Below, in pieces: positions 37,981 to 40,483 of a stretch of DNA of 64,000 bases; position 1 is the first letter of the stretch; each line of letters begins with the position of its first letter. Origin of the DNA: Escherichia phage vB_EcoM_TH18; sequence record ON075799; one strand, 5' to 3'. The notes beneath the pieces were generated by a model, which worked only from the letters and a program-made list of their open reading frames with translations, ran no database searches and was not told the origin of the DNA. The position numbers were made by a program, and so were the translations under genes.

Positions 37981-38057
37981 TGGTGGGCGATGAGGGACTC
38001 GAACCCCCAAAATTCAGGTTCTAAGCCTGACATGTATACCAATTCCATCAATCGCCC
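37981..38057 (-). tRNA. tRNA with anticodon UAG (Leu by anticodon) but class I architecture
   Basis: Acceptor GGGCGAU/AUCGCCC, anticodon arm UCAGG-CUUAGAA-CCUGA, 5-nt variable loop, A73, CCA encoded. Confidence 0.6.
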
Positions 38058-38305: not shown

Positions 38306-38383
38306 TGGTCTGTCCGGTTGGATTTGAACCAACGACCTGGTCATCCCAAGTGACCCGCGCTACCCAAGCTGCGCTACGGACAG
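38306..38383 (-). tRNA. tRNA-Pro (anticodon UGG)
   Basis: Acceptor CUGUCCG/CGGACAG, anticodon loop CUUGGGA, T-arm GUUGG-UUCAAAU-CCAAC. Confidence 0.75.
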
Positions 38384-38467: not shown

Positions 38468-38559
38468 TGGCGGTTCCTGAAGGATTCGAACCTTCGGTGG
38501 GGAGATTCATTCCCAACGGCTTAACAGGCCGTCACCATCGACCACTCGGTCAAAGAACC
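38468..38559 (-). tRNA. Class II (long variable arm) tRNA with anticodon GUU (Asn by anticodon)
   Basis: 92 nt; acceptor GGUUCUU/AGGAACC, D-arm with CCGAGUGG, anticodon arm ACGGC-CUGUUAA-GCCGU, 20-nt variable arm, T-arm GAAGG-UUCGAAU-CCUUC, G73, CCA. Confidence 0.6.
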
Positions 38560-38568
38560 TGAATATTT

Positions 38569-38645
38569 TGGTGGATCTGGTTGGGGTCGAACCAACAATC
38601 TCTCGATTAAAAGTCGAGTGACTTAAACCATTTGGCTACAAATCC
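38569..38645 (-). tRNA. tRNA-Lys (anticodon UUU)
   Basis: Acceptor GGAUUUG/CAGAUCC, anticodon arm CUCGA-CUUUUAA-UCGAG. Confidence 0.75.
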
Positions 38646-38878: not shown

Positions 38879-38967
38879 TGGAGGAGGCTGACAGAATCGA
38901 ACTGTCACCATATCTCTACAGCGGGACTGGGTTCAAACCAGCTTGTGCACCATGCACCCCAGCCTCC
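38879..38967 (-). tRNA. tRNA-Ser (anticodon UGA), class II
   Basis: Acceptor GGAGGCU/AGCCUCC, anticodon arm GCUGG-UUUGAAC-CCAGU, long variable arm, T-arm GACAG-UUCGAUU-CUGUC. Confidence 0.7.
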
Positions 38968-39038: not shown

Positions 39039-39132
39039 TGGAGGAAGATGCCAGACTTGAACTGGCACACCCATTTCTGGGTTACTATCTCCTTAGCAGG
39101 GAGATCCCTTACCAAATTAGGGTTAATCTTCC
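39039..39132 (-). tRNA. tRNA-Ser (anticodon GCU), class II
   Basis: Acceptor GGAAGAU/AUCUUCC, anticodon arm UCUCC-CUGCUAA-GGAGA, long variable arm, T-arm GCCAG-UUCAAGU-CUGGC. Confidence 0.7.
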
Positions 39133-39153: not shown

Positions 39154-39243
39154 TGGTGGAGAAGGAGAGAATCGAACTCTCAAGCCGTTTTACCAGTCAG
39201 CACATTTCCAATGTGCTTTCGTCGCCAATCGATTTGCTTCTCC
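39154..39243 (-). tRNA. tRNA-Ser (anticodon GGA), class II
   Basis: Acceptor GGAGAAG/CUUCUCC, anticodon arm GCACA-UUGGAAA-UGUGC, T-arm GAGAG-UUCGAUU-CUCUC; D-arm irregular. Confidence 0.65.
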
Positions 39244-40407: not shown

Positions 40408-40483
40408 TGGTGGGAGTGGTAGGCTCTGCCCCTACGTCCTCTCGATTATCGGTCGAGCGATCTACTAACTGATCTACACTCCC
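40408..40483 (-). tRNA. tRNA-shaped gene, anticodon GAU (Ile by anticodon), with non-canonical D-, anticodon- and T-loops
   Basis: All four stems perfectly paired, but T-loop is GGCAGAG (no UUC), D-loop AGUUAGUA lacks GG, anticodon loop CCGAUAA has C33. Confidence 0.55.

Follow-up and report, generated by a model that had tools for sequence, protein, structure and literature searches.

A long-armed tRNA with an asparagine anticodon in Escherichia phage vB_EcoM_TH18 is one of a large, essentially viral family

Among transfer RNAs (tRNAs), the only ones to which textbooks and reviews assign a long variable arm are tRNA-Leu, tRNA-Ser, bacterial tRNA-Tyr and tRNA-Sec (PMC7609411, PMC9976931). A 64,000-nucleotide (nt) stretch of DNA from Escherichia phage vB_EcoM_TH18 (sequence record ON075799; this whole stretch is referred to here as the window) encodes a tRNA that does not fit this scheme, with class II architecture and the anticodon GUU of tRNA-Asn. 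It is probably a working elongator tRNA-Asn that is charged by asparaginyl-tRNA synthetase (AsnRS) through its anticodon and G73, and it is a member of a viral family. The known exceptions to the textbook rule, nev-tRNAs and allo-tRNAs, are treated as notable, whereas the long-armed tRNA-Asn is common and conserved in relatives of T5, phiKZ and rV5/phAPEC8.

The nematode nev-tRNAs, which have Gly or Ile anticodons, resemble the window tRNA in being natural, conserved class II tRNAs with the anticodon of a class I amino acid (PMC3333845). They keep the identity of their class II parent (A73 in 115/115) and are charged with leucine in vitro, breaking the code (PMC3333845). Identity there follows the parent, whereas the identity positions of the long tRNA-Asn follow the anticodon and no recoding would be expected; its G73 and phage origin place the window tRNA outside the nev-tRNAs. 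The allo-tRNAs and selC*-type tRNAs are likewise long-armed bacterial or phage tRNAs with non-Ser anticodons, recovered from metagenomes, but they have an 8/4 or 9/3 branch, a tRNA-Sec-like D-arm and a mostly predicted Ser identity (PMC5389517). The acceptor/T branch of the window tRNA is the canonical 7/5 (a 7-base-pair (bp) acceptor and a 5-bp T stem), with a normal D-arm and a D-loop of ordinary size, and it is thus not an allo-tRNA. Finally, T5 tRNA-Lys, tRNA-Thr and tRNA-Asn offer a likeness as phage replacements for host tRNAs targeted by AriB, the nuclease of the PARIS system, and T5 tRNA-Asn works in vivo, helping to rescue cells and phages from PARIS (PMC12409363). AriB cuts at 40/41 and needs U36-A-A-U39, and the documented escape from PARIS relies on point mutations of the D-loop and anticodon stem and involves no added arm (PMC12409363). 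The window anticodon arm reads U36-A-A-G39 and, like that of T5 tRNA-Asn, has G39 and not the U39 that AriB requires.

Sequences of this kind are already present in databases as plain tRNA-Asn, the label that annotated GenBank records give to the long gene. A search of the full-text literature, with subscription-only papers outside its scope, found no description of a class II tRNA-Asn and no published discussion of the extra arm, and a review of non-canonical tRNAs makes no mention of phages.

Gene and fold

The gene is called by ARAGORN on the minus strand as a 92-nt tRNA including CCA, with anticodon gtt, and matches the Rfam tRNA family RF00005 with 56.8 bits (E = 1.3e-10; gathering score 29). 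Its cloverleaf thus scores above the gathering score, and its helices show compensatory changes. A covariance model built from family members (R1) gives it 93.4 bits. Its parts are as follows.

38468..38559, minus strand: whole gene, class II-architecture tRNA, GUU (tRNA-Asn), encoded 3′ CCA (ARAGORN, Rfam)
38553..38559, minus strand: 5′ strand of the acceptor stem, GGTTCTT (tRNA positions 1-7), 7/7 paired with AGGAACC (parse)
38534..38550, minus strand: D-arm, ACCG-AGTGGTCGA-TGGT (positions 10-26), class II-type, with C11:G24 (parse)
38516..38532, minus strand: anticodon arm, ACGGC-CTGTTAA-GCCGT (parse)
38523..38525, minus strand: anticodon GTT (G34 U35 U36), which reads AAC and AAU (ARAGORN)
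38496..38515, minus strand: variable arm, 20 nt, as T, GGGA-ATGAATC-TCCC, CACC (parse)
38479..38495, minus strand: T-arm, GAAGG-TTCGAAT-CCTTC (parse)
38471..38478, minus strand: 3′ strand of the acceptor stem, AGGAACC, and discriminator G73 (at 38471) (parse)

In the arm-by-arm parse, U8 and G9 lie between the acceptor and the D-arm and G26 follows the D-arm, which reads TGACCGAGTGGTCGATGGTG in full and contains the CCGAGTGG reported earlier from the letters alone. The variable region, TGGGAATGAATCTCCCCACC, folds as 1 nt, a 4-bp stem, a 7-nt loop and 4 unpaired nt, and the T-arm as parsed is GAAGGTTCGAATCCTTC. Folded alone by thermodynamic minimum free energy, the sequence does not give a cloverleaf (z = -2.44), a common outcome for tRNAs that was disregarded as uninformative. 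The sequence-only reading, made by hand folding, had described a 92-nt tRNA with a 20-nt variable arm, G73, CCA and a CUGUUAA loop with GUU, and every one of these details is borne out by ARAGORN and the parse, automated calling agreeing on both anticodon and arms. Its statement that the cluster holds no class I tRNA-Asn likewise stands, as ARAGORN and Rfam found no second GTT tRNA within the 64-kb window.

Ordinary class I tRNA-Asn, such as E. coli asnT and that of T5, shares with the window tRNA the GUU in a CUGUUAA loop, G73 and the 7/5 branch, and the T5 acceptor (GGTTCCT/AGGAACC) nearly equals that of the window (GGTTCYT/AGGAACC covers both). The difference lies in a variable loop of 4-5 nt as against the 20-nt region with its 4-bp stem, and in a D-arm of AGCTCAGT-type as against the class II-type D-arm of the window (CCGAGTGG...). 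Bacterial tRNA-Tyr shares the layout of the extra arm (about 1 nt, 3-4 bp, a tetraloop in most relatives and about 3 nt unpaired on the 3′ side) as well as G34 and U35, and differs in A36 and A73 as against U36 and G73. The T-arm of the window tRNA recurs unchanged in E. coli K-12 tyrT and in the tRNA-Lys of phage VIK251. Bacterial tRNA-Ser shares the long arm and G73, and in the window also G1:C72, G2:C71 and C11:G24; it differs in that the window arm has too short a stem and excess unpaired 3′ nt, with U3:A70 in place of A3:U70, in that these acceptor determinants are not conserved in the window orthologues or the family, and in that the anticodon is not one for serine.

A phage family with a covarying extra arm

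Escherichia phages 18-1-2, 19-1-2 and 24-2-1 match the region at 100% identity, and Av-05 (Vequintavirinae, Avunavirus) matches it at 96%; the tRNA gene itself is 100% identical in the first three and 97.8% in Av-05. A long gtt tRNA occupies the same cluster position in Av-05 (91 nt), in GAP31, 4MG and VIK251 (89 nt each) and in the Salmonella phage SSE121 (85 nt). Across these aligned orthologues GTT and G73 are invariant and the stems change compensatorily: the anticodon stem alternates between CGGC/GCCG and CAGG/CCTG, the extra-arm stem takes the forms GGGA/TCCC, TGGA/TCCA, GAGA/TCTC, GAGT/ACTC and GGC/GCC, and the SSE121 acceptor, GACGAGT/ACTCGTC, is wholly different and still paired. Related phages might have revealed a tRNA-Tyr with GUA, altered here by a sequencing-level difference, as the sequence-only reading had allowed; all of them have GTT, and the recurrence of the long GTT tRNA in many phages goes well past what chance would give.

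Beyond the subfamily, long GTT tRNAs occur in the Salmonella jumbo phages 7t3 and SE_PL and in OMKO1 and other phiKZ-like Pseudomonas phages. With six divergent members as BLAST queries, 390 further GenBank phage records were recovered, bringing the total above 400; among them are T5-like Demerecviridae in their hundreds, phAPEC8-like phages, phages of Proteus, Providencia and Serratia, and additional Pseudomonas jumbo phages. As checked by hand, the Cys-Asn-Asp slot that holds a 78-nt class I gene in T5 is filled in Shivani (Tequintavirus) by a tRNA-Asn of 83 nt, and phAPEC8 has an 86-nt long tRNA-Asn adjoining its tRNA-Tyr.

IMG/VR was scanned with a pattern that places CTGTTAA and GGTTCRAATCC 18-32 nt apart, a spacing reached only with a long arm, and at least 111 loci hold a long GTT tRNA (111/120 among the matches listed). 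The family sample, 106 unique long GTT tRNAs (102 in some tests), was taken from among the IMG/VR matches listed, and clustering of 102 unique sequences at 80% identity gives 75 groups. When the same pattern was applied to 596 Gb of bacterial and archaeal genomes, only 9/120 among the matches listed hold a long GTT call: four are archaeal intron-bearing class I genes, three lie in dense phage-like tRNA arrays on contigs of metagenome-assembled genomes (MAGs) and two are Ser-bodied. The long GTT tRNA family is essentially viral; it is large, old and diverse, and is found almost only in phages. A host origin was sought by blastn against 5,426 E. coli genomes, which gave no match, and alignment shows no special similarity to the phage's own Tyr or Ser tRNAs of the kind a recent copy would have.

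The archaeal cases (MAG contigs L171, L190, L240 and L244) show how an automated count of long arms can go wrong: ARAGORN in bacterial mode gives a long-armed tRNA-Asn where the gene is really class I with short introns, and the true 3′ strand of the anticodon stem sits inside the apparent arm. The Ser-bodied cases, at L210 6162-6250 (Prevotellaceae RUG755) and L217 3976-4064 (a cellular assembly), carry the GTT anticodon on true Ser-type bodies with a GGAGG acceptor, and the second combines G73 and a D-arm typical of Ser with a 5-bp arm that leaves 1 nt unpaired on its 3′ side. Both are candidates for Asn-to-Ser missense tRNAs or mutated Ser genes.

The extra arm is a real helix, and all five helices covary. 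Variable regions of the family fold at a mean of -2.9 kcal/mol, compared with -0.7 for shuffled sequences. In the alignment, the four pairs of the arm are 94-97% paired with 5-6 pair types each, values that fall to 28-58% paired when the partner is slid by one column, and pair counting over the full alignment finds double changes at 4/4 arm pairs. For the whole structure the covariation score is 0.95, against 0.10-0.13 in slid controls; double changes occur at 23/24 pairs, and 98.2% of cells are paired as compared with 38-45% when slid, with the GTT-only rows in agreement.

Its geometry is that of tRNA-Tyr. In the family, as parsed, the arm of the long GTT tRNAs has a 3-4 bp stem, usually with a tetraloop, and 3-4 unpaired nt on the 3′ side, whereas the comparison arms have 3-4 bp and 3 nt in Tyr, 5-7 bp and 0-1 nt in Ser, and 2-5 bp and 2 nt in Leu tRNAs. 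The window arm, with 4 bp and 4 nt, is thus of the short-stemmed Tyr type, and the earlier description of the molecule as a Ser/Tyr-type class II tRNA holds for its Tyr half and fails for Ser.

Amino-acid identity and competing readings

In E. coli, Asn identity consists of the anticodon and G73, one of only two known Asn identity elements, and can be transplanted onto tRNA-Lys (PMC9976931). In bacteria that lack AsnRS, Asn-tRNA is made by GatCAB, which requires U1:A72 (PMC9976931). The window tRNA has G34, U35, U36 and G73; its first pair is not U1:A72 but G1:C72, as in the functional tRNA-Asn of T5. The hosts of the window phage are enterobacteria, which have AsnRS; U1:A72 is required only where that enzyme is lacking. 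Ser identity, by comparison, lies chiefly in the variable arm and is indifferent to the anticodon, and bacterial tRNA-Ser conserves G1:C72 and G2:C71 and is recognized by the shape of its long arm (PMC9976931). C2:G71 is an antideterminant for seryl-tRNA synthetase (SerRS), G73 is one for both TyrRS and LeuRS, and A73 is critical for TyrRS (PMC9976931). With GUU and G73, the window tRNA has neither a Ser anticodon nor the A73 and GUA of the Tyr set. G73 had been taken in the sequence-only reading as typical of Ser/Tyr-type tRNAs, but it does not point to Ser: though usual in tRNA-Ser, it doubles as the discriminator of tRNA-Asn (PMC9976931).

At the family level these positions follow tRNA-Asn. 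G73 is found in 94/106 unique long GTT tRNAs and in 38/39 class I GTT tRNAs of the same contigs, while A73 is the discriminator of Tyr and Leu tRNAs (phage Tyr, 45/47). The 1:72 pair is U:A in 55 and G:C in 47 of the long forms (n=106), and U:A in 22 and G:C in 16 of the class I tRNAs of the same contigs (n=39); at 2:71 the long forms have G:C in 47, C:G in 35, U:A in 15 and A:U in 7 (n=106). Phage Ser tRNAs (n=80) have G2:C71 in 77 and A3:U70 in 62, and never U1:A72. The acceptor stem across the family thus appears to follow tRNA-Asn and not tRNA-Ser. In the 30 loci with both forms, the long GTT tRNA agrees with the short one at 1:72 in 33/38 comparisons (expected 0.49; permutation p ~1e-4), whereas agreement at the adjacent 2:71 is found in just 16/38; at the very pair that counts for the Asn pathway, the long form therefore follows the ordinary tRNA-Asn of its own phage. 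By host, Pseudomonas-phage versions have U1:A72 and enterobacterial-phage versions G1:C72, and the Pseudomonas route is that of ND-AspRS and GatCAB (PMC2330236). A crude naive-Bayes isotype classifier, which ignores the anticodon, variable arm and T-loop and has 75% leave-one-out accuracy, assigned the 102 members mostly to Asn (33), Tyr (26), Gln (16) and Cys (11), with 2 as Ser and 1 as Leu; it is informative at family level only. The tRNA sets of GAP31 and 4MG cover nearly all amino acids only when the long GTT gene is counted as Asn.

We infer from these sequence features that the window tRNA is charged by AsnRS and used on the ribosome; the tRNAs of phiKZ, taken collectively, are expressed and sediment together with ribosomal fractions (PMC8545117). 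Under this model the host AsnRS would load asparagine by reading G34-U35-U36 and G73, the tRNA would decode AAC and AAU, and the Tyr-like extra hairpin between the anticodon and T arms would be tolerated by the enzyme. Phages hold the long form either as their sole tRNA-Asn or beside a class I one, and its role would be to supply Asn decoding during infection in a genome with frequent, AAU-biased Asn codons (56 per 1000 in the window open reading frames (ORFs), 60% of them AAT). As a working guess, the arm may alter the shape of the tRNA enough to affect host tRNA-targeting enzymes while leaving AsnRS unaffected. Equally, it may be a frozen accident, kept after an ancestor resembling tRNA-Tyr changed identity in two steps (A36 to U and A73 to G); descent from tRNA-Tyr, only these two changes away, would explain both the Tyr-like arm and the tyrT-like T-arm. 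If AsnRS does charge the long form, a class IIb synthetase can accommodate a bulky additional arm, which would be useful for tRNA engineering and for understanding synthetase docking. The family would also be a test bed for whether tRNA shape, beyond point mutations of the anticodon loop, can let phage tRNAs escape host tRNA-targeting immunity.

Several observations weigh against a plain tRNA-Asn. AsnRS is a class II synthetase that approaches its tRNA from the variable-loop side, where a long arm might hinder it. The window tRNA combines G1:C72, G2:C71, C11:G24, G9, G73 and a 4-bp arm, which are most of the known SerRS determinants of E. coli. Its D-arm lineage is common to it and a phage tRNA-Ser(GCU), whose anticodon is one base from GTT, and the D-arm of the GAP31/4MG/VIK251 version is identical to that of PHB09 tRNA-Ser(GCU). 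The classifier cannot place the body of the window tRNA, with Lys, Ser, Phe, Asp and Asn within 0.8 log units. The covariance model was built from six members and the family was aligned to it, such that the alignment is fitted to the model structure, and the scan pattern fixes the CUGUUAA loop and the T-loop, the family statistics resting on pattern-chosen loci, ARAGORN calls and our own parsing.

The Ser-like features lead to an alternative that is unlikely but survives best, in which identity is dual or ambiguous: SerRS would charge part of the pool through the long arm, G73 and G1:C72/G2:C71, and AAC/AAU would be read partly as Ser, either as deliberate low-level mistranslation or as a tolerated side reaction. 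The disregard of SerRS for the anticodon and its reliance on the variable arm (PMC9976931) are in keeping with this, as are the GAP31-type D-arm and the classifier, which places Ser second for the window tRNA, 0.2 log units below the top. Himeno and colleagues reportedly found in 1990 that a tRNA-Tyr whose variable stem was lengthened by two nucleotides gained Ser acceptance in vitro. The E. coli SerRS, however, reads a characteristic tertiary structure (PMC9976931), and the window arm, with 4 bp and 4 unpaired 3′ nt, departs from the 5-7 bp and 0-1 nt of phage tRNA-Ser. G1:C72 and G2:C71 are together absent from over half of the family, half of which has U1:A72 and a third C2:G71; even the syntenic SSE121 orthologue has A2:U71 in place of G2:C71, and despite this keeps GTT and G73. 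The 1:72 pair follows the phage's own class I tRNA-Asn, and the true Ser-bodied GTT tRNAs at L210 and L217 exist and look different. Asn accounts for 5.6% of the window coding sequence, and at such codon frequency efficient Ser insertion would be very costly. The sequence-only reading had left two options, an unusual tRNA-Asn or a chimera of ambiguous charging identity; the acceptor stems of the family and the geometry of the arm favor the first, although this particular molecule may be charged ambiguously to some extent.

A second alternative, slightly less probable again, assigns the long form a mainly non-translational function: it would be a decoy or competitive inhibitor of a host defense nuclease that targets tRNAs, or a marked substrate of a phage enzyme, the arm would be its working part, and decoding would be secondary or absent. 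Such a function would suit the 29% of long-form loci (32/111 listed) that also keep a class I tRNA-Asn, often <100 nt away; these pairs are not recent duplicates, which suggests that the long form is not merely redundant. It would also suit the clustering of long arms in particular phage lineages over several isotypes. Moreover, tRNA-Asn(GUU) is a target of AriB, phage tRNA-Asn helps to counter this nuclease, and overexpressed viral tRNAs may also inhibit it, according to the authors (PMC12409363); the U39 of the AriB motif is absent from the window tRNA. On the other hand, the features of decoding and charging are strictly kept (the 7-nt loop, U33, GUU, G73, CCA and the host-matched 1:72 pair), and in many phages the long form is the sole tRNA-Asn. 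Long forms do not keep the AriB motif U39-C40 more often than short ones (48/102 vs 18/39, or 47% vs 46%; Fisher p = 1), and there is thus no sign that the arm substitutes for point-mutation escape from AriB.

The last alternative, a decayed or mis-sequenced tRNA-Tyr or tRNA-Ser with a single anticodon change (GTA or GCT to GTT, each one substitution away) and no specific function, could draw on the tyrT-like T-arm and on a degenerate tRNA in the cluster, but it is extremely improbable and effectively refuted by conservation and covariation, given a GTT that is invariant in orthologues whose stems differ throughout by compensatory changes, the 75 clusters and >400 GenBank records, a conserved G73 where Tyr has A73, and the presence in the window of separate Tyr and Ser tRNAs.

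Long arms on other isotypes, exchange between architectures and the tRNA cluster

Arms of the same build occur on other class I isotypes in phage arrays: Met (13/74), Cys (9/33), Thr (9/74), Ile (8/67) and Lys (6/83), and also Asp, Trp, Glu and Pro. Examples, from viral loci L013-L132, are the following.

L069, 7424-7508: long-armed tRNA-Cys
L034, 4406-4489: long-armed tRNA-Thr
L066, 9127-9214: long-armed tRNA-Lys
L054, 3224-3310: long-armed tRNA-Trp

These tRNAs have the discriminator normal for their isotype in 59/70 cases (U73 in 9/9 Cys, G73 in 4/4 Trp), and the long-armed forms thus keep their own discriminator, which indicates that the arm does not bring Ser identity along with it. Such arms are about 3x rarer in loci sampled for class I tRNA-Asn (12/441) than in class II arrays (70/928). 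It is conceivable, if doubtful, that phages systematically build long-armed versions of tRNAs that are class I in all cells, each keeping the identity elements proper to its amino acid and Asn being the clearest, and that the arm is a selected device and no relic, serving as a nuclease shield or as a mark for phage enzymes; if true, these tRNAs would form a structural class of their own and the arm would represent a new, general counter-defense strategy.

Class I and class II GTT tRNAs of one phage were also compared as possible sister copies, and apart from one locus (L053) the excess is only marginal (0.54 vs 0.48 identity). When loci were sampled for a class I GTT tRNA instead, to gauge prevalence, 0/108 listed also had a class II one, a count confounded by the GAGTCC T-loop that class I partners in mixed loci often have and that the pattern misses. 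At L053 2518-2616, on a jumbo-phage contig, adjacent class I and class II GTT tRNAs have an identical anticodon stem, CTTGT/ACAAG, which suggests recent conversion between architectures within one genome, the only clear case.

Between phages, the class I tRNA-Asn of T5 (L133 13953-14030), whose anticodon stem has mismatches, and the class II tRNA-Asn of 7t3 (L005 2501-2589) have an identical 28-nt 3′ end, comprising the T-arm, acceptor strand, G73 and CCA. This suggests either modular exchange or common descent of the acceptor/T domain. The annotated tRNA-Lys of Klebsiella phage NDO71 (L008 2453-2528) is a composite, in which the 5′ part is that of a VIK251-type tRNA-Lys and the 3′ acceptor strand, G73 and CCA come from the class II tRNA-Asn (VIK251 comparison loci, L009 2256-2332 and 2501-2589). 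It looks like the product of a deletion between the identical 17-nt T-arms of the Lys and Asn genes, in which the Asn gene was lost and an imperfect acceptor was left.

In the window, ARAGORN finds 16 tRNA genes on the minus strand at 37.8-43.5 kb, among them the separate tRNA-Tyr and three tRNA-Ser genes. The immediate neighbors of the long tRNA-Asn gene are these.

38569..38645, minus strand: tRNA-Lys(UUU), 9 nt upstream (ARAGORN)
38306..38383, minus strand: tRNA-Pro(UGG), 84 nt downstream (ARAGORN)

The tRNA-Lys(UUU) and the long tRNA-Asn are probably co-transcribed, and the Lys-Asn order is also present in Av-05. A promoter-like site lies upstream at 38786-38758 and a strong terminator-like hairpin past the cluster end at 37684-37664, each as a consensus match only. 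The sole overlap with the gene is a 31-codon ORF with a TTG start on the opposite strand.

The three tRNA-Ser genes (38879-38967, 39039-39132 and 39154-39243, minus strand) have discriminators U, U and A in place of the G73 usual in bacteria, along with unusual D-arms, and U73 is found in 28/80 phage Ser tRNAs. Two of the three, and the tRNA-Tyr, score under the Rfam gathering score. A further tRNA at 40411-40483 (minus strand; Rfam, 53.4 bits) was missed by ARAGORN; it has anticodon GAU (Ile), C33 for U33 and a non-canonical T-loop, GGGGCAGAGCC, and its position matches that of the tRNA-Ile of GAP31. This degenerate, Ile(GAU)-like sequence is not a tRNA-Asn and may be a decaying or unusual tRNA-Ile. 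In GAP31 (L002 2051-2120) and 4MG (L003 2184-2253), a tRNA-like gene of 70 nt has an 'anticodon' of 2 nt, gt, and carries the annotation tRNA-OTHER or pseudogene; the GAP31 GenBank record also lists an 87-nt tRNA-Lys (L002 2975-3061) that ARAGORN does not call.

In phages, isotype cannot be inferred from the length or class of a tRNA, and annotation should take this into account. The tRNA-Leu(UAG) of the window (37981-38057, minus strand) is a mirror image of the long tRNA-Asn, being 77 nt in length and class I-sized, with a 5-nt variable loop and A73. The long arm is absent from 48/107 Leu tRNAs in the sampled phage arrays, nearly all of them with A73, and the LeuRS of E. coli can do without it (PMC9976931).

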